From an uncultured Pseudomonadota bacterium (GTDB lineage Bacteria; Oederibacteriota; Muellerivitia; Muellerivitales; Muellerivitaceae), in assembly GCA_963770835.1 (NCBI GenBank), contig CAVYRH010000004.1, forward strand, positions 166,515 to 230,514: a DNA stretch of 64,000 nucleotides, in the 5' to 3' direction. Position 1 is the first letter of the stretch; each line of letters opens with the position of its first letter. Shown piece by piece: positions 1,475 through 49,950 of this stretch. The position numbers and the translations under genes are program-made. The notes below the pieces were generated by a model. The model did not search any database, was not told the origin of the DNA, and worked only from the letters and a program-made list of their open reading frames with translations.

Positions 1475-1499
1475 GGGCGAATTCTTTAGAGGTTTAATT

Positions 1500-1650
1500 T
1501 GTCATTGCGAGGAATACCCGACGAATAGGCGGGTGGTAATGACGAAGCAACCTCAGTTTAAATATGCTGTTGTGAAGGATCGACAACCAAGGCTAAAACC
1601 ACCCTTGAACTGGGGTTGCTTCGCCTCAAAATTCGAGGCTCGCAATGACA
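1500..1650. repeat. Nested inverted-repeat (MITE/REP-like) element. Outer 12-bp IR TGTCATTGCGAG/CTCGCAATGACA, inner 14-bp IR CGAAGCAACCTCAG/CTGGGGTTGCTTCG.
   Basis: Read directly: 1500-1511 pairs with 1639-1650, and 1543-1556 pairs with 1610-1623 (13/14). Lies in a divergent intergenic region. Confidence 0.45.
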
Positions 1651-1801
1651 GCTATCAATGATTTATTCGAACCGCCGGGAAATCATAAGCCGGGGGCGGG
1701 GGGGAGGAAAGAAAAAAGTGGCGGAAGGTGAAGGAAAAGGAATAGTGTAGCCAACGGACGGTTGACTGCGAGTTTACCGAAGGTTAACAAAAGGGGATTT
1801 C

Positions 1802-9717: not shown

Positions 9718-10968
9718 ACAACATTGATCCCCAAACCCTGCTTCCCAAAACCAACGACGAAAACTCCGCGTCCGGCTTAGATTCGGCAAGACACAAAGAC
9801 AGGAAAGACCTGGTTTTCGTCAACCTGGGCCCCAGCCACCCCGCCACCCACGGCTGCCTGCGGGCCCTTTGCGCCCTGGACGGGGAAACCATCGTGGCCG
9901 CCGTGACCGAAATGGGTTACCTGCACCGGGGTTTCGAGAAAGACTGCGAAGTCCACACCTTCCAACAAGTCATTCCCTACACCGACCGGCTCAATTATGT
10001 TTCTGCCATCATGAATAACGTGGGTTACTGCAAGGCCGTGGAACGGATGCTGGGCATCCAAATCCCCGACCGGGCGGCCTATATCCGCGTCATTACTTGC
10101 GAGTTCAACCGCATCATCGACCACTTGGTCTGCGTGGGCGCCAACCTGGTGGACATCGGGGCCCTGACCAATTTCTGGTACTCCTTCAACGCCCGCGAGA
10201 AGGTCTACGACATCCTGGAAAAGCTCTGCGGGGCCCGGCTGACCTCCAGCTACACCCGTATTGGGGGTCTTTCCCGGGACGTTTATCCCGCTTTCGGCGA
10301 CGAAGTGAGGGCGGTGCTGAAGGATATTAAAAAGAGCGTCTCCGAAATCACCAAACTAATTTCCAAAAACCGCATTTTCCTGGACCGTACCCAGGGCGTC
10401 TGCGTCGTCTCCAAGGAAAAGGCCATTTCCTACGGCTGGACCGGGCCGACGCTCAGGGCCTGTGGGGTGGAATACGACCTGCGCAAGGCGGACCCCTATT
10501 ACCACTACGAGGATTTCAAGTTCGAAGTGCCGGTGGGCACCAAGGGCGATATCTACGACCGCATCTTCGTGCGGCTCTACGAGATCGAGGAATCCATCGA
10601 GCATCATCGAACAAGCCCTGAGGAAACTCCCCAAGGGACCCATCCTGACCGACGACAAGCGGGTGGCCCTTCCTCCCAAACAGCAGACCTACGGCAATAT
10701 CGAGGGGCTGATGAACCACTTCAAGATCATCATGCACGGCATCTGCCCGGAACCGGGCGAGGTTTATGACTTCACCGAGGCTGCCAACGGCGAACTGGGG
10801 TTTTATATCGTTGCCGACGGGGGCAAGAATCCCTACCGCATCAAGTGCCGCCCACCCTGCTTCATGAACTTCGCGGCCTTCCACGAGATGATCGAGGGCG
10901 GCATGATCGCGGACGCCATCGCGAATTTGGGATCGATCAACATCATTGCCGGAGAGCTGGACCGGTAA
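9714..10968 (+). CDS. nuoD: NADH-quinone oxidoreductase subunit D. Apparent +1 frameshift at about 10599-10602.
   Basis: The N-terminal 296 aa are in frame 0 up to ..YEIEESI. The conserved C-terminal part (IIEQALRKLPKGPI...GELDR) continues in frame +1. One extra base lies in the quartet gagc at 10599-10602. Confidence 0.85.
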
Positions 10969-10993
10969 ACGGAATAAAAAACCCGAGGGTGTA

Positions 10994-11473
10994 ATGGCCG
11001 TTCAGTTTAAAAAAGAAACGAAGAACGAGTTCGAGACGATTGCCGCCCGATACCCGGTGCGGCGCGCGGCGCTGTTGCCCGCCCTGTGGCTAGCCCAGCG
11101 GGAATTCGGCTTCATCTCCGTGGACGCCATGAAGGCGGTAGCCGAGATGGTGGGTTGTTCCCCGGCCCAAGTGCTGGAGACCGCCAGCTTTTACACCATG
11201 TACCACAAGGAAAAGCCGGGCAAGTACCACCTGCAAGTCTGCCAGACCATCTCTTGCCTCTTAAACGGGTCGGAAGAGATCAAGAAGACCATTGAAGCGA
11301 AGCTCAACCTGAAGCCGGGACAAGTAACACCCGACGGGCAGTTCAGCTACCAGCCTGTGGAATGCCTGGCGGCGTGCCATAACGGGCCCTGCATGCGGGT
11401 GAATGATGACTACCACGAAAACCTGACGCCCGAAGGCGTTGGGAAACTGATTGATGAACTGAAGAGAAAATGA
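10994..11473 (+). CDS. nuoE: NADH-quinone oxidoreductase subunit E (24 kDa, 2Fe-2S)
   Basis: Thioredoxin-like fold with Cys motifs CQTISC...CLAAC. ATG at 10994 after a GAGGG ribosome-binding site. Confidence 0.88.
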   Translation: MAVQFKKETKNEFETIAARYPVRRAALLPALWLAQREFGFISVDAMKAVAEMVGCSPAQVLETASFYTMYHKEKPGKYHLQVCQTISCLLNGSEEIKKTIEAKLNLKPGQVTPDGQFSYQPVECLAACHNGPCMRVNDDYHENLTPEGVGKLIDELKRK

Positions 11474-11937
11474 ACATTATGAAAGGCCTTCTTGGAAGAA
11501 AGGGACTTGTTTTTGCGGCGATCCTTTTTGCTGTGCATTGCACGCCAGCTCGGGCGGAGGAATTATCAAGTGGGAACGAGGTCGTTAATTACGGGGTTGG
11601 AGTGACGTTCACCGGAAAGATCGCAACCCGGTTGGAATATGGAGCACCGGGTTTTGGGGAGGACCCAAAGACAGACGCAAAGGAAAACATCTTCTTGTTG
11701 GTGTTGGATAAACCCATTGATGTTCATGTGGATCAGAGCCGTCCGGGCGATGTTACCGATACGAATGATTTCGATGGAGTGAAAGAAATGCAGGTGGTTT
11801 TTACCGGCAAAAGAATGTTTTCGAAAAAAATAATAGGGAAGAAGGTCAAAGTGACCGGAACATTATTCCAAGCTCATACCGGCCATCATCATACGGACGT
11901 TTTAATCGAAGTAGATACTGTAGAAAGATTGAAGTGA
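11470..11937 (+). CDS. Low-GC secreted His-cluster protein inserted between nuoE and nuoF (hypothetical)
   Basis: ATGA overlap with the nuoE stop. Signal peptide with an AXA cleavage site (ARA|EE). HTGHHH motif. GC about 45% versus about 60% in the flanking nuo genes. Confidence 0.6.
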   Translation: MNIMKGLLGRKGLVFAAILFAVHCTPARAEELSSGNEVVNYGVGVTFTGKIATRLEYGAPGFGEDPKTDAKENIFLLVLDKPIDVHVDQSRPGDVTDTNDFDGVKEMQVVFTGKRMFSKKIIGKKVKVTGTLFQAHTGHHHTDVLIEVDTVERLK

Positions 11938-11952
11938 ACCCGGAGCGAATCA

Positions 11953-13233
11953 TTGCCTGACTTTCAACCTCAATTAACCAAACGTTTCGGACTCAAGGAC
12001 AGCCATATGCTCAAGGTATTCCTTGAGACGGGTGGCTATGCGTCCTTGAAGAACCTTTTCGCCAAGAAGCCAGCCGAAGTCATCGAGGAAGTGAAGGCCT
12101 CCGGCCTCAAGGGCCGCGGTGGGGCCGGGTTCCCGTGTGGTATGAAATGGTCCTTTGTGCCCCAGAACACGGGCAAACCAATCTACCTGGCGGTCAATGC
12201 CGACGAGGGCGAACCGGGGACCTTCACCGACAATTACATGCTCTTAAACGACCCTCATCTTTTATTAGAAGGCATCCTATGCGCTTGTTATGCCATCAAC
12301 AGCCATACGGCTTATATTTATGTCCGGGGTGAGTTTTATGCGCATATCCAGCGGCTGAACGCTGCCATTGATGAAGCCCGGAAAGCTGGATATTTAGGGA
12401 AAAACATCCAGGGTTCGGGTTTCGATCTGGAAGTTTACGTGCACCGGGGTGCGGGGGCCTATATCTGCGGCGAGGAAACCGGGCTTTTAGAATCGCTTGA
12501 GGGAAAACCCGGAAAACCGCGCATTAAGCCGCCTTTTCCGGCGGTGGTCGGACTCTTCGGTTGCCCCACCATCGTCAACAACGTGAAAACCCTGGCTTCC
12601 GTCCCTTGGATCATCGCCAACGGTGCGCCGGCCTATGCCGTCATCGGTACCAAGGAATCCACCGGCACCCACGTCTTCGGACTCTCGGGCCACGTGAACC
12701 AGACCGGCTATTGGGAAATGCCCTTCGGCCTTCCCATGATGGAATTCATCAACAACTACGGCAAGGGAGTGAAGGGCGGGGCGCTCAAGGCTGTCATTCC
12801 CGGCGGTTCTTCCTGCCCTGTACTAACTGCCAAGGAATGCGAAGACTTGACCCTTACATATGAAAGTATGCGGGACCACAAAACCATGTTCGGAACAGGT
12901 TGCGCCATCGTGATGAACGAGCACACCGATATGGTGAAGGTTTTGAAAAATCTGACCCATTTTTATTCCCACGAGTCCTGCGGCCAGTGCACGCCCTGCC
13001 GGGAAGGGACAGCCTGGGAAGACCGGCTGATGAAGAAGTTTTTGAACGGGGAAGCCACGACCCAGGAATTGGGAATGATGCTGGAGATCGCCGACAACAT
13101 GGAGGGCAAGACCATCTGCGTTCTTTCGGCGGCCCTGGCCATGCCGGTCCGAAGTTTCATCCAGAAATTCCGGCCGGATTTTGAGAAATATTGCAAGCCG
13201 ACCTCAGTGGCCGTGCCGGAGGCGGTTTCCTAA
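11953..13233 (+). CDS. nuoF: NADH-quinone oxidoreductase subunit F (FMN/NADH-binding, 4Fe-4S)
   Basis: GLKGRGGAGFPCGMKW FMN site and ESCGQCTPCREG cluster motif. TTG start. Confidence 0.92.
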   Translation: MPDFQPQLTKRFGLKDSHMLKVFLETGGYASLKNLFAKKPAEVIEEVKASGLKGRGGAGFPCGMKWSFVPQNTGKPIYLAVNADEGEPGTFTDNYMLLNDPHLLLEGILCACYAINSHTAYIYVRGEFYAHIQRLNAAIDEARKAGYLGKNIQGSGFDLEVYVHRGAGAYICGEETGLLESLEGKPGKPRIKPPFPAVVGLFGCPTIVNNVKTLASVPWIIANGAPAYAVIGTKESTGTHVFGLSGHVNQTGYWEMPFGLPMMEFINNYGKGVKGGALKAVIPGGSSCPVLTAKECEDLTLTYESMRDHKTMFGTGCAIVMNEHTDMVKVLKNLTHFYSHESCGQCTPCREGTAWEDRLMKKFLNGEATTQELGMMLEIADNMEGKTICVLSAALAMPVRSFIQKFRPDFEKYCKPTSVAVPEAVS

Positions 13234-23226: not shown

Positions 23227-23688
23227 ATGCGTAAAATCTCGGGAAATGATCGCGGATTTACACTGATTGAACTCATGATCGTGGTGGCCATCATCGGTAT
23301 TTTGGCGGCTATCGCCATTCCCCGTTTCGCCCAGATGCTGGAAAAGGGCCGGGAAGGCGACACCAAAGGCAACTTGAACAGCATCCATTCGGCGGCTTCC
23401 ATTTATTACGGGGATCAAAGGGGCATATGGCCCACAACCCTGAGCACCCTTTCAATTTACGACTTCAGCCAATACCTGGACAATGTGGCCCCGGTCAAGG
23501 TCACGGGCAGTTTCGTGATGGGCGCCCTGAGCCCCAGCGGAGGGTTGATTACTATGACCACCCAGTCTTCTGTTCCTACGGGCAGCGGTACCGGTTGGCT
23601 TTACGACAGTACAAACGGCGAAATCTACGTCAATAGCACGGTAACTGATTCCAAAGGGCTTCCCTATTCTTATTACGGTTTCGAATAA
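23227..23688 (+). CDS. Type IV pilin / T2SS pseudopilin-like protein (N-methylation motif)
   Basis: Prepilin leader MRKISGNDRG|FTLIELMIVVAIIGILAAIAIP with the conserved Glu5. Confidence 0.85.
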   Translation: MRKISGNDRGFTLIELMIVVAIIGILAAIAIPRFAQMLEKGREGDTKGNLNSIHSAASIYYGDQRGIWPTTLSTLSIYDFSQYLDNVAPVKVTGSFVMGALSPSGGLITMTTQSSVPTGSGTGWLYDSTNGEIYVNSTVTDSKGLPYSYYGFE

Positions 23689-31812: not shown

Positions 31813-32577
31813 TTGGCAAACACGGACATTCGAACCCAAAAAGGGCTGGGAGTCACTTTGCGAACCGACAATTGGTTTGGCGAGCCTTTGGCCATCGCGG
31901 CGGGCCTGATCGCCTTCGTTATTTATATGACCTACGCGGCCTTCACCCCCTACGGCCCCGCCGGCCAGGTTTGGTACAAGTGGGGTTCCTATATTTCCCC
32001 GGCTTTCTCCCCTTATATCAATCCCTCCTGGTATAAATGGTCTCCCGCCATCCTCATCCTTTGGGCGCCTGCGGGTTTTCGGGCCACTTGTTATTACTTC
32101 CGTAGGGCCTACTACCGGGCCTTTTTCCAGGACCCACCCGGTTGCGCGGTGGGCGAGGAATCCCGCGAGTACAAGGGTGAGACGGCCTTTCCCTTTATCC
32201 TGCAAAACCTACACCGTTATTTCCTTTATTTCGCCATTCTGCTAGTCATCAATCACTGGTTTGATTTGGCTGTGTCCTTCACCAAGGAGGGACCAAAGGA
32301 TTATTACGTCGGGATGGGCACGGTTGTTTTGGCGATTGATACGGTGCTTTTGACCCTTTATGTGGGAAGCTGCCACGCTTGGCGCCACTTGATAGGCGGT
32401 AAAGAGGACTGCTTTTCCGCCTGCCCTTCCTACCGCTACAAAATCTGGTGCCAGGTTTCCAAGTTCAATGAGAAACACGGCCTTTGGGCCTGGTTGTCCC
32501 TTTTCACCGTGGGCTTCGCGGACCTCTATGTGCGCATGGTGGCCATGGGCATTTGGACGGACATCAAGATATTTTAA
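31813..32577 (+). CDS. sdhC: Succinate dehydrogenase/fumarate reductase cytochrome b membrane anchor (single-subunit, type-B-like)
   Basis: 254 aa with 5 predicted TM helices and conserved His residues. Immediately upstream of sdhA. TTG start after AGGGAGG. Confidence 0.65.
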   Translation: MANTDIRTQKGLGVTLRTDNWFGEPLAIAAGLIAFVIYMTYAAFTPYGPAGQVWYKWGSYISPAFSPYINPSWYKWSPAILILWAPAGFRATCYYFRRAYYRAFFQDPPGCAVGEESREYKGETAFPFILQNLHRYFLYFAILLVINHWFDLAVSFTKEGPKDYYVGMGTVVLAIDTVLLTLYVGSCHAWRHLIGGKEDCFSACPSYRYKIWCQVSKFNEKHGLWAWLSLFTVGFADLYVRMVAMGIWTDIKIF

Positions 32578-32661: not shown

Positions 32662-34578
32662 GTGCCTCTGTGGCGAGAATCTTTCGAGGTGACGAGTTTG
32701 AGCGATAACTACCAAAGTTTCGAATACGACGTTCTCGTGATCGGCGCCGGTGGGGCGGGCTTGCGCGCCGCCATCGAGGCCTCAGCGGCGGGATGCAAGA
32801 CCGGCCTGGTCTGCAAATCCCTCCTGGGAAAGGCCCACACGGTCATGGCCGAGGGCGGCATCGCGGCGGCCCTGGCCACGGTGGATTCGCGGGATTCCTG
32901 GAAACAGCACTTCTGCGACACTTTGATCGGCGGCAACTTCGCCAACCACTGGAAGATGGCGGAGATCCACGCCAAGCAGTCGCCGGACCGCGTGCGGGAG
33001 CTGGAAAAATGGGGCGCGGTGTTCGACCGCACCACCGACGGCAAGGGAAACATCAACGTCCGCCATTTCGGCGGGCACACCTACAAGCGCCTGGCCCACG
33101 TTGGCGACCGCACGGGGTTGGAGCTAATCCGCACCCTGCAGGACAAGGGCGTGCATTCCGGCATCGACGTGCACATGGAATGCACCATTTATTCCCTCCT
33201 TAAGGACGGCGACCGCATCGCCGGAGCCTACGGTTATTTCCGTGAAACAGGCCGCCCCGTCCTTTTCAAAGCCAAGTCCATCATTCTTTCCACGGGGGGC
33301 ATCGGAAAACTTTACTCGGTCAATTCCAACTCCTGGGAATGCACAGGCGACGGTTTCGCGCTGGCCTACCTGGCCGAGGCCGAGCTGGCCGACATGGAGT
33401 ACGTTCAGTTCCACCCCACGGGCATGGTCTGGCCCGCTTCGGTCAAGGGCCTCCTTATTACCGAGGGCGTTCGGGGCGAGGGCGGGGTTTTGAAGAACAA
33501 TAAGGGCGAGCGGTTCATGTTCAAGTACATCCCCCCCAAGTACCAGGGCAAGTACGCCGACACCGAGGCCGAAGCCAACGCCTGGTTCCAAAAGGTAGTG
33601 GTGGAGGGCCAGAAGGAAGAAAACGTCAAGGAACGCAAGCCTCCCGAACTCATGAGCCGCGACGTTACGGCGAGAGCCCTTTGGACTGAGATCAAGGAAG
33701 GGCGGGGAACGGAACACGGCGGCGTGTACCTGGATATCGCCTCCCGCCGGACCCCCGAGGACATCAAGAAAAAACTCCCTTCCATGTACCACCAGTTCAA
33801 GCAGCTGGCGGACGTGGACATCACCAAGGTACCCATGGAAATCGCCCCCACCTGCCATTACATGATGGGCGGCATCAAGGTCGATCCCGAAACCCAGATG
33901 TCCAACGTGCCGGGCCTTTTCGCCGCGGGCGAATGCTCGGCGGGCATGCATGGCAGCAACCGCCTGGGCGGAAATTCCCTTTCCGACCTCGTGGTTTTCG
34001 GCAAACTGGCTGGGGAAAACGCGGCGGCTTTTGCCAAGAAAAACGGCGCCCCGAAGATCAACGATGCCGTCTTCACCGACTTGAACAAGGAAATGAACCG
34101 TCCCTTTGAGAACGTGGGAGGGGAAGTATCCTACGCCATCCTGGCCGACCTCCAGAAGGCTATGGAAAAAGGCGCGGGCATGTACCGGGAAGAAGCTCTG
34201 CTGGAAGGCTGCATCAAGGATTTGGCTTCCCTTCGGGAACGCCTCAAGAAGGTTTCCGCCGAGGGCAACCGCATATTCAACCCCGGCTGGCACGTGGCGC
34301 TGGACTTAAGGAACATGCTCGTCGTGGGCGAAGCCATCGCCCGGGCAGCCAAGGAACGCAAGGAATCCCGCGGGGGCCATACCCGCACCGATTACAGTAC
34401 CTATTCGAAGGATTTCGCCAGGAAGCGCGTGGTTGTGCGCCAGAAGGGCGAGTCCATGGAAGTGGCACAGGAAGACCTACCCCAGGTTCCGGCGGACCTG
34501 GAAGCGGAGCTGGTGAAGGAAGGGTTTTTGAAGGCTGAAATTTTGAAACAAATCCGAGGAGAAGCCCCAGCGCATTAA
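32662..34578 (+). CDS. sdhA: Succinate dehydrogenase/fumarate reductase flavoprotein subunit
   Basis: FAD Rossmann VLVIGAGGAGLRAA, covalent-FAD His region (HTVMAEGG) and active-site Arg/His motifs. The real start may be TTG 32698. Confidence 0.92.
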   Translation: MPLWRESFEVTSLSDNYQSFEYDVLVIGAGGAGLRAAIEASAAGCKTGLVCKSLLGKAHTVMAEGGIAAALATVDSRDSWKQHFCDTLIGGNFANHWKMAEIHAKQSPDRVRELEKWGAVFDRTTDGKGNINVRHFGGHTYKRLAHVGDRTGLELIRTLQDKGVHSGIDVHMECTIYSLLKDGDRIAGAYGYFRETGRPVLFKAKSIILSTGGIGKLYSVNSNSWECTGDGFALAYLAEAELADMEYVQFHPTGMVWPASVKGLLITEGVRGEGGVLKNNKGERFMFKYIPPKYQGKYADTEAEANAWFQKVVVEGQKEENVKERKPPELMSRDVTARALWTEIKEGRGTEHGGVYLDIASRRTPEDIKKKLPSMYHQFKQLADVDITKVPMEIAPTCHYMMGGIKVDPETQMSNVPGLFAAGECSAGMHGSNRLGGNSLSDLVVFGKLAGENAAAFAKKNGAPKINDAVFTDLNKEMNRPFENVGGEVSYAILADLQKAMEKGAGMYREEALLEGCIKDLASLRERLKKVSAEGNRIFNPGWHVALDLRNMLVVGEAIARAAKERKESRGGHTRTDYSTYSKDFARKRVVVRQKGESMEVAQEDLPQVPADLEAELVKEGFLKAEILKQIRGEAPAH

Positions 34579-34609
34579 TTTTTTGGTGTTTTGGCCAGGA
34601 GGTGTTGTT

Positions 34610-35101
34610 ATGGCTTCAAGTTCGCCCCAACCGCCTCCGCTTCGCGTTTGTGAGGTTTGTGGCCAGACAAGCGCACAAAAGATTTGTCCAAATTGCGGGA
34701 CTTCGGCCGCTTTTGTGGGCTGGTTTACCCGCAAGGTAAAAGACAAGATAACAATCATCCTTTTATGGTTAGCATTAATTTTTGCTTGGATCGAATTGTT
34801 CGTCTTGATGAAGGTTGTGCCTACGTTTGCTGACGTATTTGCAAGTTTTGGCGCAAAGTTGCCAGGGCCAACTGTTATTTGGATTCAAATGAGCAATGGA
34901 GTGAAGTTGTTTAATTCTCCTTTTCTTATGTGGATTCCATTTGGGGCGCTTTACCTTTTGATTGTATTTCCATTTGAACGCTTAAGGATTTTTGGTCTCA
35001 AAACGGCAGTTGGGTTGTTTGTTTTTTCAATTTTATTTATTTTTTTTACCATTATTTCGTTGTTCATGCCGATGTTTGAAATAGGGAATGTCGTCAACTA
35101 A
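34610..35101 (+). CDS. Zinc-ribbon plus GspF/PilC-like membrane segment protein inserted between sdhA and sdhB (hypothetical)
   Basis: CEVCGQ...CPNCG zinc ribbon. The TM region VVPTFADVFASFGAKLPGPT resembles the conserved T2SS-F/PilC segment. The 3' two-thirds is AT-rich (about 38% GC). ATG 34610 after AGGAGG. Confidence 0.55.
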   Translation: MASSSPQPPPLRVCEVCGQTSAQKICPNCGTSAAFVGWFTRKVKDKITIILLWLALIFAWIELFVLMKVVPTFADVFASFGAKLPGPTVIWIQMSNGVKLFNSPFLMWIPFGALYLLIVFPFERLRIFGLKTAVGLFVFSILFIFFTIISLFMPMFEIGNVVN

Positions 35102-35114
35102 AGGGTGGTATGAA

Positions 35115-35846
35115 ATGTCCAACATTCACATGAGGGTCTACCGGGGCAACTCGGAGGGCGGACAACTCAAAGACTACAACGTCGAAGTGGACGAAGGCAT
35201 GGTGGTCTTGGACGCCATCCACCGACTCCAGGCCACCCAATCCTCCGACCTCGCCTGCCGCTGGAACTGCAAGGCCGGCAAGTGCGGAAGCTGCTCGGCG
35301 GAAATCAACGGTAAACCCCGTCTCATGTGCATGACCCGCCTGAACGAGTTTGAGGAGGGGGAAACTATCACGGTCGCGCCCATGAAAACTTTCCCCCTGA
35401 TGAAGGACTTAGCCACCAATGTTTCCTGGAACTACGAGGTCAACAAGCGCATCCCGCCCTTCACGCCCAAGGACGGGGCCGACTGGCATTGGGAACAAAG
35501 GGACGTGGACCGCATCCAGGAATTCCGCAAATGCATCGAGTGCTTCCTTTGCCAGAACACCTGCCACGTCCTGCGGGAGCACGACAAGAAGACCGCCTTC
35601 GCGGGTCCGCGCTTCTTTGCCCGCATCGCCTCCCTAGAAATGCATCCCATTGACGCCCTGGATCGCACGGGGCTCTTGAAGGACCAGCAGGGCCTGGGGC
35701 TCTGCAACATTACCCGTTGCTGCACCGAGGTCTGTCCCGAGGACATCCACATCACGGATAACGCCATCATTCCCCTGAAAGAACGGGTGGTCGACAAGTA
35801 TTACGACCCCCTAAGGCTCCTTTGGAACAAGGTGTTCGGAAAATAA
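35115..35846 (+). CDS. sdhB: Succinate dehydrogenase/fumarate reductase iron-sulfur subunit
   Basis: 2Fe-2S CRWNCKAGKCGSC, plus CIECFLCQNTC and CTEVCPEDIHI cluster motifs. Confidence 0.9.
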   Translation: MSNIHMRVYRGNSEGGQLKDYNVEVDEGMVVLDAIHRLQATQSSDLACRWNCKAGKCGSCSAEINGKPRLMCMTRLNEFEEGETITVAPMKTFPLMKDLATNVSWNYEVNKRIPPFTPKDGADWHWEQRDVDRIQEFRKCIECFLCQNTCHVLREHDKKTAFAGPRFFARIASLEMHPIDALDRTGLLKDQQGLGLCNITRCCTEVCPEDIHITDNAIIPLKERVVDKYYDPLRLLWNKVFGK

Positions 35847-36133
35847 AAAATTTCAGAAGCCCTGATCTTGAATCGGCCATCCACTGGCGTCCCTGGTCGG
35901 TGGCCATCGTCCTGGCAATCTTCCTCGCTGTTTTTTCCCTCACCGAGTTCAACCTGCTTCAATGGTCTTTTTCAATTGAATTGGGCTGTGCCGTATTGTT
36001 CGTCTCAGCGGGATGGAATATCTACGTCCTGCTGCGGGCTCGATCGGGCGGGAAGCCGGGCTTGAATCCCGAAATCGCCGACGGCCTTCTTCTCGTAGGA
36101 CTGATTTTGGTTTTCCTCGGAGCGTTTTTTTAA
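35822..36133 (+). CDS. Small membrane protein (hypothetical)
   Basis: 103-aa ORF with 3 predicted TM helices. Overlaps the sdhB end. Weak evidence. Confidence 0.3.
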   Translation: MEQGVRKIKNFRSPDLESAIHWRPWSVAIVLAIFLAVFSLTEFNLLQWSFSIELGCAVLFVSAGWNIYVLLRARSGGKPGLNPEIADGLLLVGLILVFLGAFF

Positions 36134-41981: not shown

Positions 41982-43316
41982 TTAGTGACGGACTAGCAGC
42001 TTGGCGGTTTTATAGCCCACATGCCCATTGGGCCCCTCCACGTCCACGACCGCGATATACAGCCCGCTGGCCATTCCTCCCGCGTTCCAAACCGCCTGAT
42101 CCGCTCCAGTGCTCCCTTGGGTAGTCCCCACCAGTTCACCGGCCACGTTGTAAACCCGCACTTTGAGGGTGAATCCCTGGGTTGAATTCACCGTGAAGAC
42201 CGCCGTAGTTTGCCCTCCCGCCAGCACATTGGGCTCCACCAGCAGTTGCCCGGGGACCATTCCCCTTGAGCCGTCCATCACTGATACCTGGCGAGTGACA
42301 ACCTGGTCATTGGGCCCGCTCAGCCAGGAAGCTTCCACGTAGTATTGGCCGTTCGTCACCATGCCGCCCTGGTCATTGGTGCCGTCCCAAACCAATGTCA
42401 CGCTTCCGCCGGAAACAGACACATTGATGGTGATTTGCGACGATGAGGTGGAAGAGGCCGAGACGACACCGGGCGCGACCGTATTGGAGGATAAGTCCAA
42501 GGACTGGATGGTGCTGTTGGAGTTCGACACGATTCCCTGGTAGAGGTGTTTCACGATCTCACCGGCCTCGTTATAAACGGCGACTGAAAGGGTGGAGAGG
42601 GAGCGGTTGACGCTGACGTTCTGGGTGACGGAGGTGACAACACCCAAAGAATCGGTGCTTTGGACCTTGATGAAATACTGGCCGCTGGTGACCTCCGTGC
42701 CATTCTGGGCCGTGCCATCCCAGGAAGCCACCGTCGCATCGAGGATGGAGACGGAAGTGGAAGAAACCTGGTTGGTCAAGGACATGGAGGAGAGTTGGAA
42801 GGAGGAGATGGTTTGGGCGAAGTTCTGGACCAGGAGGGTTTTCACCAGTTCACCCGCCGAATTGTAGACGGCGACCTGGACGGTGATGGGGAAAATTACC
42901 GTCACCGGCGCGGTGACGGACTGGGGCTGTCCTCCCGTCTCTTGCACCTGGGCGTTGTTGAGGAGGACGGTTTGTTCCACCAGGCTGGAAGAAATGGTCA
43001 CGGTGTAGGGAAGCTGGTAGACGCCGGGGGCCAGGGAAGGGAAGGCCCAGGTGAGGACGGGGCCGGTTTGACCCATGGTTTCGCCCGCCACGGCAGGCGA
43101 GGGTTGGCCCATCCCCGCGAAAACCACCTGCGCGGGCAGGGTATCCGTAACTTGGACGTTGGAGGCTGTGGAACCCGAGACGGTCAGCAGGATCCGGTAA
43201 ACCACGGTATCACCGGGATGGGCTGTGGTTTCGGAAGCGATCTTTTGGATTTGGATTCCCGGAGTGGGGGTCGCCGTGTTGGTGGGCGTGGAGGTATAGG
43301 TGGAAGTGGGAGTGAA
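41982..43316 (-). repeat. Paralogous duplication unit A (C-terminal DUF11 plus 3x FlgD-Ig), about 85% identical to 47119-48453
   Basis: The protein C-termini of about 445 aa align nearly colinearly. Nucleotide similarity is visible at the 3' ends of both genes. Confidence 0.8.
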
Positions 43317-46300
43317 AGTGAAGGTGAGGGTCGGTGTAAAGGTGTCAGTGGAAGTGGGCGTAAGCGTAGTGGTGGAGGTCGGTGTAAAGGTCGATGTCCG
43401 GGTGGGCGAGTCCGTCGGCGTCGAGGTGGCGGTCATGGTTGGCGTAAGGGTGGGTGTGGAGGTGTCCGTAACCGTCGCGGTTGGGGTCGCGGTGAAGGTT
43501 GAGGTTAAGGTGGATGTGACGGTGGCCGTTGGCGTGGCAGTCGAGGTCAAGGTAGCGGTGGAGCTGGGGGTGAAAGTTGGGGTGGCCGTAGGAGTGGCCG
43601 TTTCCGTAGACGTGAAAGTGAGGGTGGGCGTGGAAGTCGCCGTAAAGGTGGGCGTGGCGGTGGGCGTAGAAGAAGGCGTGGTGGTGGGGGAATTCGTCGG
43701 CGTATCCGTGGGAGTGGAGGTGGGCAGGGGGGTTGTGGTATTCGTGGGCGTGTTGGTGGCCGTGGCGGTGGAAGTGTTGGTGGGAGTTAAGGTGGGTGTG
43801 GAGGTCGGCGTCGCGGTCGCAGTGGATGTGGGAGTGGCTGTGGGGGTGTAAGAGGGGGTTGGGGTCATCGTGCTAGTGGGGGTGGCCGTCGGGGATGGGG
43901 TCGGGGTATGGGTGACGGTATTCGTGGCAGTGGCTGTCGCAGTGTTGGTCGGAGTTAAAGTCGGCGTCGTGGTCGCCGTGAAAGAAGGTGTCGAAGAAGG
44001 CGTAGGCGTGGGGGTATTCGTCGGCGTATTCGTGGGGGTGGAGGTGGGCAGAGGGGTTGTGGTGTTCGTGGGCGTGTTGGTGGCCGTGGCGGTGGAAGTG
44101 TTGGTGGGAGTTAAGGTGGGTGTAGAAGTCGGAGTCGCTGTGGCGGTGGAAGTGGGGGAATCCGTGGGGGTACGGGTAGCTGTCAGTGTCGTGGTGTTCG
44201 TCGGAGTGGCCGTCGGGGACGGGGTAGGGGTGTTGGTGGCGGTATTTGAAGGGGTATTGGTCGCGGTAAAGGTGGAAGTCATCGTTGCCGTGGAAGTGGC
44301 CGTGGAAGTGGGCGTGGAGGAAGGCGTGGCGGTGGGGGAATTGGTCGGCGTATTCGTAGGGGTGGAGGTGGGGATGGGCGTTGTGGTGTTTGTGGCCGTC
44401 GGGGTAGCTGTGGCAGTGGCGGAACTGGTCGGGGTCAGGGTGGCCGTGGCGGTTGAAGTATTCGTCGGCGTGTTGCTCGGCGTGTTGGTTGGTGTGTTCG
44501 TCGGGGTGGCCGTAGGGCTGTTGGAAGGGGTTGGGGTGGGCGTGTTGGTCGGAGTGTTGGTGGGCGTATTGGTCGTGGTGGCTGTGGGGGTGTTGGTGGG
44601 TGTATTGGTGGGAGTGTTGGGCAGGGTGTTGGTCGGAGTGTTGGTGGGGGTATTGGTTGGAGTGGCCGTGGGGGTGTTGGTTGGCGTTAAAGTCGGCGTA
44701 TTGGTGGGGGTTGGGGTATCGGTGACTGTCGGCGTGTCCGTGGGCGTGGCCGAGGGGGTGTTGGTGGGCGTGCAGGTGTATCCCACGTTATTGGTCACGG
44801 CGTTGGATAAGAGAGTGGAAGGCTGGGTCTCAAAATTTTCCTCCTCGGCGATATTGGTCACAACCCCGGAACAGGTTCCCGCCGGCAGGGCTCCGACGGT
44901 GACACTGAAGGAAAGGGTTCCCGAAACGCCCGCTGCCAGGTAGTTGATCTGCCAGAGCAAATCCTGCCCCACCAGGGCGGTGACAGGCTGGTAGGGATTG
45001 CTGGTGACCGAATTGGAAAGAAGGTTTGTCCCGGTCGGGATCGTGTCGTTGATTACAACGCCGTCGATGGCGGAGGTGCCGGTATTCTTATAGGCCAGGG
45101 TGTAAGTGATGGTCTGTCCCTGGTTCACCTGGCCGGCCGGGTTGTTGGACTTGGCCAGGGTAATGCTGGGGTTGGGGCAGGAAATCCACTGGGGACAGTC
45201 GAAGTAGCCCCATCCATAATGGCCGCCTTCGCCGCAGTCATATTCGCTCACGACGATGGTGCATTGCTGGCCCGCGTATTGGCACAGGTTGAAGGTATAG
45301 GGGGTCCAGGGAAAAACCCCCCAGTTCGTCCCGTTGGAGGGGTTCACCTGGCAGCCGCCCGCCGCGCCGACCGTTCCGGCGTTGTTCCCCACCAAGCCGT
45401 CCAGGGTCACCAGGCCCGACCCGACCAGGTACTGCCAATTGAGCAGCAGGTCGTAAACCTGCAGGCCGCCCGCGCCGCATTGGCCCCCGCCGATATAAAC
45501 CTGGACCTCCAGGTAGGCGTCGTCGTTGGGGTTGCCCGGATTGTTGAGGTAGTGGTAATTCTCGAAAACACCCGCCAGCTCAAACGACAGGCAGCAAGAA
45601 CCGTTGGTTGGAACCGTTGAACTGGTGCAGACCCGGGCGTAATCGCCATGGTTCGTGTCCCCCCGGCCCGAGAAAAGCTGGTAGGCGCTGGGCTGGCCGG
45701 CCGGGACCGTGTTTAGGAGCCCGTTCGAGTTGGGGGCTATCCCGGGACCCACGGGGACGGCCACCGGGTTGCATGCTACGTTGGCGCCCGTATTAATAAG
45801 GGAGGTCCAATTCGTAAATTCGCTTGAACAGGCATTGGGCCAGGGGATGGGAGTGAAAGTCGGCGTAAAAGTGGAGGTGGAAGTAAAGGTTGGCGTGGGA
45901 GTGTGGGTGAAGGTTGGAGTGAAAGATGCCGTCGGGGTAGAGGTGGGCGTGGCCGTATCGGTCAGGGTGAAAGAGGAAGTGGGCGTGGAAGTGGAGCTAA
46001 GGGTGGCCGTACTGGTAGGAGTGAAGCTGGCCGTCGGCGTGAAGGTTGAAGTCGGAGTGGAGGTGCCTGTGTTTGTCGGTGTCACCGTCGGGGAATTGGA
46101 GGCTGTGGGAGTGGGTGTGGCGGTATTCGTGGGAGTGACCGTCGCGGTGTTGGTTGAAGTCGGAGTCTGCGTTGAAGTTGATGTGGAAGTGGGACTGGGG
46201 GTAGCCGTGCCGGTCGGGGTGTCAGTGAAGATGGCCGTATTGGTCAGCGTGAATGTGAAGGTCGGAGTGGGGCTGGGCGTGTCCGTTGGGGACGCCATGG

Positions 46301-46429
46301 GCGTCGAGGTTGAAGTATCGGTGGGGGAATCGGACGGGGTTAAGGTCTGGGACCTCACCGGCGCGACCGCGAGGAAAGCCAGGGTCGTCAAGATCCATAA
46401 GACCGATCTTACTGGGGACAGTTGTATCA
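41982..46429 (-). CDS. Giant secreted surface protein: signal peptide, PT array, beta-sandwich N-domain, DUF11, 480-aa PT linker, DUF11, 3x FlgD-Ig/T9SS-CTD-like modules
   Basis: ORF open to 46544. The probable start is ATG 46429 (MSEMIQL..) after AGAAGGA. DUF11 motif [23 protein letters not shown].. and C-terminal VRVYNVAGELV...GLYIAVV. Confidence 0.85.
43320..44780 (-). repeat. Long PT-linker codon tandem repeat (ACN-CCN)n, about 1.45 kb
   Basis: Encodes TPTNTPTATPTNTPTNT... The plus strand reads as GVGV artefact ORFs. Confidence 0.85.
45842..46337 (-). repeat. N-terminal PT/ST low-complexity array of giant protein 1
   Basis: SPTDTSTSTPMASPTDTPSPTPTFTFT... directly after the signal peptide. 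Confidence 0.75.
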
Positions 46430-47118
46430 TCTCCGACATTTCAGTCCTTCTTTCGGATTCTAAAAGCCTCTCTGAAACGGGCCTGTTGATTGAACGGAAT
46501 CGGGGGTGTCCAGCGGCAACCAGACGGGCGATTAGGAGGAACAAATGGAAAGATATTTTCTTTTGTTTTTTGCATTAGATAGTTCGAAAAACCACCAAAG
46601 TAATGTGGAAATTCTTCCAACATTCCCTTTTAAATGGGAACGCCCGGAATGGACGCGAATAGGGAATGACGCGATTTCATTCTGAAATCTTCCCGTCTTT
46701 CTGGTTTCCAAAAACGCCTCCTCCATTCGGTTCGCCGGAAATTTTCCGGTGGACACGGAAAAGGGTGACATTTCGACTCTCTCCCCTAAATGAGCACGTT
46801 CAATGCCAGTTCAAAGCGAGTCATGTTTCAAAAAAGAAAATTTGTCCTGGGAAGCGGGTGGAGTAAAACGAGTAAAAATGTCTTAAACACGTCCGAGTTG
46901 TATTTTTTTTGAAAAAGATAACGGCAAATTAATTTGGACGGGAAATTCCTCCTTTTGAAACCGATTGAAATTTTTACATCCGCCGGTTTTTTTAACATCC
47001 CACAGGTGGTATCTAAGAGAACTAGTAGAAAAACCCCTTAAATCGGTTATTTCCCCCCGAATCCGCCTTTATCGTGTTCATCGGTGTTTCACTGACCCCA
47101 TTTTTGCCTGGGTTTGGT

Positions 47119-48453
47119 TTAATGCCGCACCACCAGCTTGGTGGTTTTGTAGACGACATGCCCATTTGGCCCCTCCAAGTCCACCACGGCGATATATAAC
47201 CCGCTTGCCATTCCCCCCGCGTTCCAAACCGCCTGGTCCGCCCCGGAAGGCCCCTGAACCGCCCCCACCAGTTCGCCAGCCACGTCATAAACCCGCACCC
47301 TCAGGGTGAAACCTTGGGCCGAATCCACCGTGAAGACAGCGGCTGTTTGTCCGCCGGCCAGTACATTGGGCTCCACCAACAGCTGACCCGGAACCATCCC
47401 CCGGGATCCGTCCACCACCGATACCTGCTGGGTGACGACTTGGTCGTCCCCGCCGTTCAACCAGGAGGCTTCCACGTAATATTGGCCGTTGGTCACCATG
47501 CCGCCCTGGTCATTGGTGCCGTCCCAGGCCAGCGTCACGCCGGCCCCGGCCATGGCGACCAAAACCGTAATGGACGAGGAGGAAGGAGAAACGGTAGGGG
47601 AACCAGGAGTAACCACGGTGGAGGACAAAACCACGGACTGGATGGTATTGCTGTTGCTTGGCACGATCCCCTGGTAAAGATGTTTCACCACTTCGCCCGT
47701 CTCGTTGTAAACGGCCACGGAGAGGGTGGAAAGGGATCGGTTGACGCCGACGGTCCGGGTGACGGTGGTGACTACGCCGAGGGAGTCGGTGCTTTGGACC
47801 TTGATGAAATACTGGCCGTTGGTGACCTCCGTGCCGTTCTGGGCCGTGCCGTCCCAAGTTGCCACCACGCCAAGGATGGAGACGGCGACGGAGGAAACCT
47901 GGTTGGTCAAGGACGTAGAGGAGAGTTGGAAGGAAGAGATGGTTTGGGCGAAGTTCTGAACCAAGAGAGTTTTCACCAATTCACCAACCGAATTGTAAAC
48001 CGCGACCTGGACGGTGATGGGAAAAACCACAGTGACCGGCGCGGTGACGGACTGCGGCCGGCCACCGGAGAAGACTACTTGGGCATTGTTTAAGAGCACG
48101 GTTTGCTCCACGAGGGTGGAGGAGACGGCGACCGTATAGGGCAGCTGGTAGACACCGGGGTTCAAGGAAGGGAAAGACCAAGCGAGGACAGAGCCGTTTT
48201 CGCCCATAGCCTCACCCACCACGGAAGGCGAGGGCTGGCCCAGGCCCAAGAAAGCAACCTGAGCGGGCAGGGTGTCGGTAACTTGGACGTTGGAGGCGGT
48301 GGAGCCGGAAACGGACAGGAGGATTTTGTAGGTGAGGGTGTCCCCCGGGTGGGCGGAGGTTTCGGAGGCGGATTTTTGGATTTGGATGCCGGGCGTGGGG
48401 GTGGAAGTGTTGGTGGGAGTGGGCGTAAAGGTGAAGGTGAGGGTGGGGGTGAA
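47119..48453 (-). repeat. Paralogous duplication unit B (matches 41982-43316)
   Basis: Same as above. Confidence 0.8.
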
Positions 48454-49950
48454 GGTATCCGTGGGAGTGGGCGTGAGCGTGGGTGTGAAGGTGGGTGTGA
48501 AGGTCGGGGTTTTCGTGGGAGTGGCGCTTGGAGTGGGCGTATCGGTATTCGTGAAGGTATAGGTGGGTGTAGGGGTTGGGGTGTTTGTGGGTGTAAGGGT
48601 TGGGGTGTTGGAAGAGGTGTTGGTGGGGCTGTTGGTCGGGGTGTTGGTGGAGGTAGAGGTGTCCGTCATGGTGGGCGTGGATGTGGAAGTGGCCGTGGCG
48701 GTTGACGTTGGGGATAAAGTGGGAGTCCAGGTTAAGGTCACGGTGGGTGTTAAAGTGACTGTGAAAGTATTGGTGGCAGTGCCGGTATTGGTGCTCGTGG
48801 CCGTGGCGGTGAAGGTCGGCGGACAGCCAACGACCGTATTCGTAACGGCGTTGGAGATGAGCCCGGCGGTTTCCAGGTCGGACTCAACGGCGGTGTTGGG
48901 GATGTCCCCACAAGTGGAGCCAGCCACCACCTGGAAGGAGACGGTCCCGGTGTTGCCCGGATAAAGGTATCCGACGTCCCAAATCAGGTCATTGCCGATC
49001 ATGGCGGTGGCGGGGATGCTGGGACTGCTCCCCATGGACCCGGGGACGAAGGCCGTGCCCGTAGGGACGGTATCGTTGATCACCACTCCGTCGATGGGCG
49101 AGGTGCCCGTATTGGCGTAAGACAAGGTATAGGTGATGGTTTGGCCCTGGTTTACCTGGCCCGTAGGGCTATTGGCCTTAGTGAGGGTAATGCTGGGGGA
49201 GGGACAGACCCCCCAACTGACGTCGTCCAAATAGCCCAGGCCGAAATGCCCTCCCGCCACGCAGTCGTAATCGGTGACGCGCAATGTGGCCTGCTGGCCC
49301 GCGTATTTGCAGAGGTTGATGGTGTATTGGGTCCAGGGAAGGTAGCCGAAATCGTTGCCGCCATCATTGCCACCCCCCCCACCGCCTGCGTCCTGGCAGA
49401 AGCCGGTGTTTCCGACTCCCGTCAAGCCATTCACCACCACCTGGCCCAAGGTATTGGACCAGGTGTAGCGCAAGCTGGCCACCGTCGTGCCCCCGACGAG
49501 GACTTCCACTAAAAGATAAGTGTCCCCAGCCAGGTCGCCTTGCAAGTAATGGTGGTCCTCAAAAACAGCGGCGAACCAGAAAGAAAGGCAGCAGGTACCG
49601 TCAGTCGGCACCGTATCGGTTTGATAGATCTGGGCCCAGTCGGCGTGGTTATTGTCGCCACGGGCCGAAAAGAGCTGGGCGGCGTAGTTGCCGGTGTGGA
49701 CCTGGTTCAAACCGGCGGGGGCCAGGGGGCCGGCGGAATCGGGCGCGACGCCCACGGGAACCACGGTGACACTGGGCGGGGCGCAAACTACGTTGGGGCC
49801 CGAGGCGATCGCGGTGGTCCAGCCGGTCAGGTTGCCCGTTTCAAAACCGGGGTTCACCCAGGCTTGCGCGCTGGAGAAACCCGAGGCCGTGAAGAGCAAT
49901 GGCAATAGGAAGGTTCGCGAGGAAGAGAAAAGACTCATTAGTTTTGACAT
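47119..49950 (-). CDS. Giant secreted surface protein, paralog 2: signal peptide, beta-sandwich N-domain, DUF11, PT linker, DUF11, 3x FlgD-Ig/T9SS-CTD-like modules
   Basis: 943 aa. Signal peptide ..GFSSAQA. N-domain [10 protein letters not shown] (CBM-like). Same architecture as gene 1 but with a short PT linker. Confidence 0.88.
48438..48828 (-). repeat. PT-linker tandem repeat in paralog 2
   Basis: [49 protein letters not shown]... Confidence 0.8.

Follow-up and report, generated by a model that had tools for sequence, protein, structure and literature searches.

Platform proteins smaller than PilC are known from Tad pili, in which TadB and TadC (CpaG/CpaH) are half-size proteins and natural reductions of the PilC architecture, each keeping a cytoplasmic T2SSF domain and encoded in a pilus operon beside the ATPase. 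In plants and animals, microProteins are small paralogues reduced to an interaction domain, through which they exert dominant-negative regulation; to our knowledge, this concept has not been established for bacterial membrane machines. Complex II, in turn, can carry small accessory transmembrane subunits, such as SdhF of the Mycobacterium smegmatis Sdh2. Here we describe gene X, our name for a 163-aa open reading frame (ORF) at 34610-35101 (+), between sdhA and sdhB, in a 64-kb stretch of contig CAVYRH010000004.1 (hereafter the window; all coordinates are in window numbering unless a locus, L plus a number, is named). Unlike TadB and TadC, protein X has no cytoplasmic T2SSF domain and no pilus-operon or ATPase neighbourhood. 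It would resemble a microProtein in being, by analogy, a multi-domain protein cut down to its oligomerisation module and carried as a separate small gene. Like SdhF, it is a membrane protein of small size that goes with an sdh operon of the actinobacterial type; in contrast to SdhF, it is patchy among near relatives, derived from PilC, and has family members far from sdh.

In the platform protein PulF, transmembrane segments (TMS) 1 and 3 provide the oligomer interface and a bundle of six helices at the centre, the ATPase hexamer docks onto the cytoplasmic domains, and an ion channel built from TMS1 and TMS3 has been proposed for the trimer, in which an aromatic-Pro and a Glu-Pro pair are reported to line the constriction (PMC10790770). 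Type IV pili (T4P) can also be blocked at this point, as PfsE, a small inner-membrane protein, does so through PilC binding (PMC8764522). PfsE, from Pseudomonas Pf phages, is grouped with Tip and Aqs1, which are other small T4P inhibitors. The size and location of PfsE, and a pilus block exerted by way of PilC, offer an analogy for the functional logic that we propose for X. The likeness ends there: the two have no sequence relationship, PfsE being the smallest Pf4 protein and not derived from PilC, and X is not on a prophage and its family is absent from viral collections.

Protein X and the PilC/GspF membrane core

Protein X appears, from its sequence, to join a C4 zinc ribbon to the three membrane helices that form the core of a PilC/GspF platform protein. 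Its parts are as follows.

34610..35101 (+): gene X, a mini-PilC gene of 163 aa plus stop; GC content at third codon positions (GC3) 0.43; AlphaFold2 (AF2) model with a predicted local distance difference test (pLDDT) score of 88
34649..34696 (+): putative C4 zinc ribbon C14, C17, C26, C29, predicted to be cytoplasmic, from the CxxC-x8-CxxC pattern
34748..34873 (+): TMS1 (residues 47-68) and the conserved motif VVPTFADVFASFGAKLPGPT (residues 69-88), from the PilC hidden Markov model (HMM) and hhalign
34919..34981 (+): TMS2 (residues ~104-124) and then a short basic loop, from the AF2 helix 104-124
34997..35095 (+): TMS3 and the C-terminal motif LFMPMFEIGNVV (residues 130-162), from the PilC HMM

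A custom PilC HMM, built from 14 full-length PilCs, matches X in two segments with a full E of 2.7e-17. HMM positions 174-232 align with X residues 56-115 (independent E-value, i-E = 3.2e-16), covering the C-terminal part of TMS1, the motif and an amphipathic helix, and positions 375-399 align with residues 138-162 (i-E = 7e-4), covering TMS3 and the C-terminal tail. The profile-profile comparison of X with PilC in hhalign gives 99.7% probability, and the sole relative of solved structure, Myxococcus xanthus PilC (3jc8), is likewise matched in two pieces (E = 2.8e-19). The conserved motifs of X are VVPxF..F..FG..LPxPT at the end of TMS1 (VVPTF..FG..LP.PT) and MFxPxFxLG in the tail of TMS3 (MF.PMF.xGN; MxLPxFxLG). 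Both peptides recur in the homologue P0005, a fragment of a genuine PilC, as VVPTFRDVFASFGAKLPAPT and AMFMPMFEIGNVVG, and in PilC it is the second cytoplasmic T2SSF domain that separates them; the C-terminal tail of X is nearly identical to AMFMPMFEIGNVVG and to the tail of the full-length PilC in L088.

The homologous parts of X and the platform protein are TMS1 with its motif, TMS2, and TMS3 with its tail, which are the helices of the PulF oligomer core (PMC10790770). What X lacks, at 163 aa against ~400, are both cytoplasmic T2SSF domains and the N-domain: the zinc ribbon stands in place of cytoplasmic domain 1, and cytoplasmic domain 2 is reduced to a loop of ~10 residues between TMS2 and TMS3, so that the distance from motif to motif is 83 residues rather than ~203. 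It also lacks the Tyr-Pro and Glu-Pro constriction pairs, having IILLWLAL and LKTAVGL at the corresponding positions, and it is not encoded beside a PilB/GspE ATPase. The AF2 model, computed from the family alignment, is confident and contains a zinc knuckle, one long helix at residues 33-80, an amphipathic helix at 86-101 and two further transmembrane helices at 104-124 and 130-162; Foldseek searches with this model in PDB and BFVD returned nothing meaningful.

These results bear directly on an earlier note on this DNA, which was made from the letters alone and which had described a zinc ribbon joined to a GspF/PilC-like membrane segment. The transmembrane segment it pointed to is present as VVPTFADVFASFGAKLPGPT, and full-length PilC/GspF models of NCBIfam match residues 41-105 (best E = 1.9e-6, far below the equivalog cutoff). 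The T2SSF profile search that the note had proposed is, taken formally, negative, since PF00482 gives nothing at E <= 1 against X and matches 0 of 35 members of its family; it is an ill-suited test, because PF00482 models the cytoplasmic domain that these proteins lack. The predicted zinc ribbon, too, is where the note had placed it, with CxxC pairs at residues 14-17 and 26-29. Pfam DZR reaches E = 0.0045 and 17.6 bits, under its 27.3-bit cutoff, the AF2 model has short strands over residues 12-25 (pLDDT 76-91), and relatives match DZR or Zn_Ribbon_1 with E-values down to 3e-8.

The mini-PilC family

X is one member of an undescribed and unannotated family, for which we use the name mini-PilC, and which is a variant of the PilC/GspF superfamily with a fixed architecture. 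A profile search over 1.84 billion representative proteins found, among the best 150 representatives at 50% identity, ~50 small proteins of 106-176 aa with a single end-to-end match, whereas full-length PilCs in the same search matched in two stretches. The two motif prolines lie a median of 81 residues apart in 49 mini-PilCs (76-88 in all but two) as against 203 in full-length PilC. Across 35 family members, residues P71, F73, F77, G81, L84 and P85 show little or no variation, and the conserved part comprises the periplasm-proximal halves of TMS1 and TMS3. The positions of the constriction pairs show the opposite trend: the aromatic-Pro pair at the start of TMS1 is kept in 5 of 49 mini-PilCs against 18 of 18 full-length PilCs, and the Glu-Pro pair at the start of TMS3 in 1 of 49 against 12 of 18. 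Individual mini-PilC subfamilies reproduce the variants of the motifs that are typical of certain types of full-length PilC, as P0154 and P0156 do for P0170. Our search of the literature found no description of a family of this kind; its members are at present annotated as "hypothetical" or mislabelled "PulF", and Pfam is blind to them.

The family evolves under purifying selection, with dN/dS (the ratio of nonsynonymous to synonymous substitution rates) of 0.42 for P0002/P0003 and of 0.14 for P0207/P0250, a syntenic pair downstream of tyrS. The zinc ribbon is not part of what is conserved. It occurs in 19 of the 49 mini-PilCs and seems dispensable, because P0207 has one and its syntenic orthologue P0250 does not. 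As for X itself, assemblies from other samples contain a protein 99% identical to it, and three homologues lie at ~34-40% identity (E 3e-9 to 7e-12). Because of this near-identical copy, these distant homologues and the dozens of end-to-end family matches, gene X is a real gene and not a chance ORF.

The genomic contexts of the family are varied. In two genomes (L118 8706-10507, L120 8690-10423) a mini-PilC gene follows tyrS by 11-24 nt within a conserved aconitase-AhpC-tyrS synteny; in L118 the surroundings are rich in tricarboxylic acid (TCA) cycle genes, with aconitase, POR and a succinyl-CoA-ligase-like gene nearby. Other members lie directly after an aconitase gene, after a XerC-like recombinase gene, or ~800 nt downstream of a class-II (GlyRS-like) aminoacyl-tRNA synthetase gene, and some are orphans. 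P0042 (L119 4462-6584) sits between a helix-turn-helix (HTH) regulator and a convergent tyrosine integrase (phrog_1), with a ParB-like gene and many unknown ORFs nearby, in what looks like an integrative element or prophage module. None of the contexts examined is a pilus locus, and in none of them did we find adjacent T4P genes or linkage to a pilin gene. We also record that a gene for a GAF-MshEN-T2SSE ATPase begins ~10 kb downstream of the mini-PilC of L118.

Gene X and the sdhA-sdhB junction

The operon around gene X has the following parts.

31813..32577 (+): gene for the sdh membrane anchor (sdhC-like), from synteny and homology; its start codon may be more internal
32662..34578 (+): sdhA, flavoprotein subunit; Pfam FAD_binding_2 (E = 5.6e-93) and Succ_DH_flav_C; NCBIfam PRK07803 at 903 bits, above cutoff
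34579..34609 (+): 31-nt spacer with the Shine-Dalgarno sequence AGGAGG (34597-34602) of gene X, from the sequence
34610..35101 (+): gene X
35102..35114 (+): 13-nt spacer with the sdhB ribosome-binding site AGGGTGG, from the sequence
35115..35846 (+): sdhB, iron-sulfur subunit; Pfam Fer2_3 and Fer4_8; NCBIfam PRK12386 at 420 bits, above cutoff

The sdhC-like gene has no match in Pfam or NCBIfam, and its identification comes from 36-56% identity and shared synteny with the gene upstream of sdhA in most of 80 related loci, where the contig reaches. The reading frame of gene X is intact, from the ATG at 34610 to the TAA at 35099-35101, with its strong Shine-Dalgarno 7 nt ahead of the ATG, and the 163-aa ORF and the two short spacers that the earlier note had reported are borne out. 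The start of sdhB is most likely the ATG at 35115, which leaves the 13-nt spacer, because the alignments of SdhB homologues begin at this same Met. With an alternative in-frame ATG at 35088, SdhB would have 252 aa, as many as the public SdhB P0262, which is 100% identical, and its gene would overlap the end of gene X. A sequence scan of the + strand between sdhA and sdhB found no sigma-70-like promoter and no intrinsic terminator; having neither of its own inside the sdh operon, gene X would be co-transcribed with sdhCAB. A search around gene X for terminal repeats, att-like sites and structured RNAs gave no flanking repeats and no Rfam match, and no phage genes lie near it. Directly after sdhB, a small hydrophobic ORF (103 aa, no Pfam match) occupies 35822-36133 (+), and in the related locus L124 an unannotated 135-aa gene lies directly 3' of sdhB.

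In composition, gene X stands apart from its operon. Over 34675-35124 the GC content is 0.32-0.41 in 150-nt windows, as against 0.59-0.64 in the sdhA and sdhB flanks, and the GC3 of gene X compares with 0.69 in sdhC, 0.78 in sdhA and 0.81 in sdhB, in agreement with the AT-rich, foreign character that the earlier note had claimed. The drop is one of synonymous sites and not merely an effect of transmembrane amino acids, since the hydrophobic sdhC of the same operon is free of the bias; the Phe codons TTT and TTC, for instance, number 18 and 2 in gene X as against 80 and 179 in the respiratory and membrane genes of the window (Fisher p = 2e-7). Most of the full-length PilCs that bear X-like motifs are encoded in loci of 39-48% GC, a composition matching that of gene X.

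We compared the junction between sdhA and sdhB in a clade sample of seven lineages, listed here with the identity of their SdhB to that of the window, and in a more distant sample of 80 sdh operons, taken from GTDB genomes, whose SdhB has 61-81% identity to the window's.

Window: spacer of 31 nt, gene, 13 nt; X, with zinc ribbon
L122/L123: SdhB ~93%; spacer of 20 nt; no mini-PilC
L124: SdhB 89%; spacer of 23 nt; no mini-PilC
L125-127: SdhB 86%; spacer of 27 nt; no mini-PilC
L023: SdhB 81%; spacer of ~107 nt; no mini-PilC
L087: SdhB 86%; spacer of 25 nt, gene, 13 nt; P0019, 126 aa, no zinc ribbon
L135: SdhB identity not measurable, C-terminus of SdhA 75%; spacer of 210 nt, gene, 110 nt; P0004, 132 aa, no zinc ribbon

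A mini-PilC is thus present at the junction in three of the seven lineages (window, L087 and L135), and the site is empty in the other four, among them the two sdh operons nearest to the window (SdhB ~93% and 89%); no homologue of X was found in any of the 80 more distant operons. The synteny comparison proposed in the earlier note therefore finds a gene that is neither shared by all sdh operons of the clade nor native in composition. Nor is gene X an isolated case of colonisation, given the divergent mini-PilCs at the same junction in L087 and L135 and their absence in the nearest relatives.

The three junction proteins share only 34-41% identity with one another in the core, while SdhB is at least 86% identical. 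P0004 and X have a common N-terminal PQPPP, and the window, L135 and L087 share a signature at the ribosome-binding site of sdhB, AAGGGTGGTATGAA-ATG and AAGGGTGGT(A/T)TGAA, that is not found in the empty sites. Short trees of SdhA and SdhB place the lineages with (+) and without (-) the gene as ((window+, L122-), L124-), ((L023-, L135+), L087+), L126-. Two histories fit these observations: an old insertion in the clade that diverged fast and was then precisely lost three or four times, or the spread of a cassette among relatives. For the present genome we favour a recent arrival of gene X, because of its foreign codon usage, its absence from the two nearest relatives and the gap in its homologues, none of which, in a search of 5.8 billion proteins, lies between 99% and ~40% identity. 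Gene X thus looks like a horizontally acquired accessory passenger and not like a core subunit of Sdh or of respiration.

In L135 the spacer upstream of the mini-PilC gene contains, at L135 493-657, a copy of a palindromic element of ~160 bp (GTCATTGCGAGGAAT...CTCGCAATGAC; DNA fold z-score -5) that resembles a miniature inverted-repeat transposable element (MITE) or a repetitive extragenic palindromic (REP) element. A copy ~90% identical to it lies at window 1497-1655, and a 73-nt half copy, inverted, lies downstream of the L135 gene (L135 1109-1181). We considered these inverted repeats as the vehicle of the L135 gene and rejected the idea, the window copy being far from X and no copy being present at X or at the L087 gene; the element at L135 is more likely a later intergenic invader.

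The junction itself tolerates insertions. A few of the 80 more distant operons, from other phyla, have unrelated genes there: an ORF of 133-158 aa in two Acidobacteria (L006 5603-6004, L014 5528-6004), a VapB/VapC-like pair in a metagenome-assembled genome (MAG) of Hydrogenedentota (L083 5334-5962) and, in a MAG of Flavobacteriales (L029 274-1425), a secreted protein of 383 aa. In the window, a further insert, a 155-aa ORF at 11470-11937 (+), lies between nuoE (10946-11473), whose stop codon its start overlaps, and nuoF (11953-13233). Its product has a signal peptide and a C-terminal DUF4431 (E = 1e-15), and its GC3 is 0.48 as against ~0.7 in the nuo genes. The broader suggestion of the earlier note, that small foreign genes colonise respiratory operons, is weakly supported: two small genes of low GC3 do sit in two such operons, but the nuo insert is secreted and unrelated to mini-PilC. 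For genome evolution, the case of gene X indicates that a small foreign membrane gene can persist long between two essential genes of a respiratory operon.

Candidate function, rival explanations and other features of the window

We tentatively propose, as the best explanation available, that gene X is an acquired mini-PilC gene, expressed with sdhCAB, whose product modulates the assembly of type IV filaments in the manner of a poison or decoy subunit. Protein X would insert into the inner membrane, retaining exactly the periplasm-proximal surfaces of TMS1 and TMS3 that form the oligomer core of PulF and PilC. There it may either co-assemble with resident full-length PilC/GspF protomers or form a homo-oligomer, a PilC-like bundle, that occupies the place of the platform. 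Because only the transmembrane core is kept, X could neither engage the PilB/GspE ATPase nor transmit its work, and would thereby damp or gate the assembly of type IV filaments. The pay-off may be a reduced sensitivity to pilus-dependent phages, or a piliation that is tied to respiratory growth by joint transcription with sdh. The proposal draws support from the part that TMS1 and TMS3 play in the PulF oligomer, from the mirroring of PilC motif types by mini-PilC subfamilies, from the precedent of PfsE and from the place of P0042 on an integrative element.

Several observations weigh against this proposal. A tblastn search of the window with PilC queries found only X, and neither a PilC nor a PilB is encoded there. 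Three pattern scans confirmed no mini-PilC in IMG/VR viral contigs, PHROGs gave only insignificant matches (E > 0.04), and PADLOC and BFVD gave none; in GenBank phages, tblastn found no match for X and one weak partial match for P0042. Given the absence of the family from IMG/VR, PHROGs, PADLOC and BFVD, a role in phage exclusion is not general for mini-PilC. Finally, the three mini-PilCs at the sdhA-sdhB junction, the one after aconitase and the TCA-rich surroundings in L118 hint at a metabolic link, and under the decoy model the recurrence at sdh and aconitase would have to be a coincidence. It is this recurrence that keeps readings linked to respiration alive at low probability.

The first of the rivals, which we consider unlikely, is that X is an autonomous small ion channel, a homotrimeric six-helix bundle of TMS1 and TMS3 that conducts H+ or Na+ and tunes or exploits the proton-motive force (PMF) beside complex II. 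X retains both of the segments from which the channel of the PulF trimer is proposed to be built (PMC10790770), and the family recurs by respiratory and TCA genes, with three sdh junctions, the site after aconitase and L118. The constriction pairs, however, are missing from X and from almost every other mini-PilC, the closest relatives have the same Sdh without the gene, and the other contexts (tyrS, the xerC-like gene, the HTH/integrase module and the orphans) are unrelated.

More doubtful is a role in the handling of pilins or pseudopilins, in which the periplasmic face of the PilC core would bind prepilin-like N-terminal helices and serve as a holdase or reservoir independent of the ATPase. 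It is consistent with this that the parts of PilC kept by X are the most conserved, periplasm-proximal ones, and that the window encodes a lone pilin-like protein with an N_methyl motif. Against it, the contexts examined gave no linkage to pilin genes, and there is no direct evidence that this face of PilC binds pilins. The lone gene in question lies at 23227-23688 (+), its prepilin motif is matched with E = 2e-10, and the window contains no further pilus genes.

We think it improbable, and have rejected it as a role for X, that the protein is an accessory membrane subunit that stabilises or modulates the SdhCAB complex of this clade. The position inside the operon, the tight spacing and the recurrence of a mini-PilC at this junction in three of the clade's lineages would favour such a subunit. 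Its distribution is patchy, however, and it is not co-inherited with sdhA and sdhB: it is missing from four of the seven lineages, the two nearest included, and from 80 of 80 more distant operons. Moreover, the junction proteins have diverged far more than SdhB, other family members lie far from sdh, and unrelated genes occupy the same junction in other phyla. To a variant of these ideas, in which the PilC-derived core has been exapted as a trimeric ion-conducting or scaffolding module working with the menaquinone-type complex II of the clade or in PMF homeostasis, we give a slighter chance again; if true, it would explain why divergent mini-PilCs recur at the sdhA-sdhB junction and beside other TCA genes.

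The reading to which we give the least credence, that X is a functionless remnant of a decaying pilC or a spurious ORF, a fragment or T4P relic in the terms of the earlier note, could appeal to its atypical composition, its missing cytoplasmic domains and its patchiness among relatives, but is rejected on family conservation and dN/dS, since the same domain-deleted architecture recurs with fixed spacing in ~50 divergent proteins, dN/dS is under 0.5, the ORF is intact behind a consensus Shine-Dalgarno, a 99% identical protein occurs in other samples' assemblies, and gene X lies outside any pilus locus.

We note that the role of the PilC/GspF membrane core is debated in the type IV filament field, where a rotor, a pilin loader and an ion channel have all been proposed. 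A natural and widespread family consisting of the core alone, without the ATPase-binding domains, is a minimal object for structural and electrophysiological work on this matter, and with mini-PilC, pili and type II secretion may have a built-in regulator of a new class.

Two further features of the window deserve mention. Extreme GC skew (0.35-0.72) is found at 43200-44800, 45600-46400 and 48400-48800, inside two very long minus-strand ORFs at 41982-46544 (1520 aa) and 47119-49950 (943 aa), and points to coding sequence that is repetitive or of low complexity. The segment 50000-52000 is AT-rich, with a GC content of 0.39-0.49 amid ~57% GC, and may be another foreign or intergenic island.

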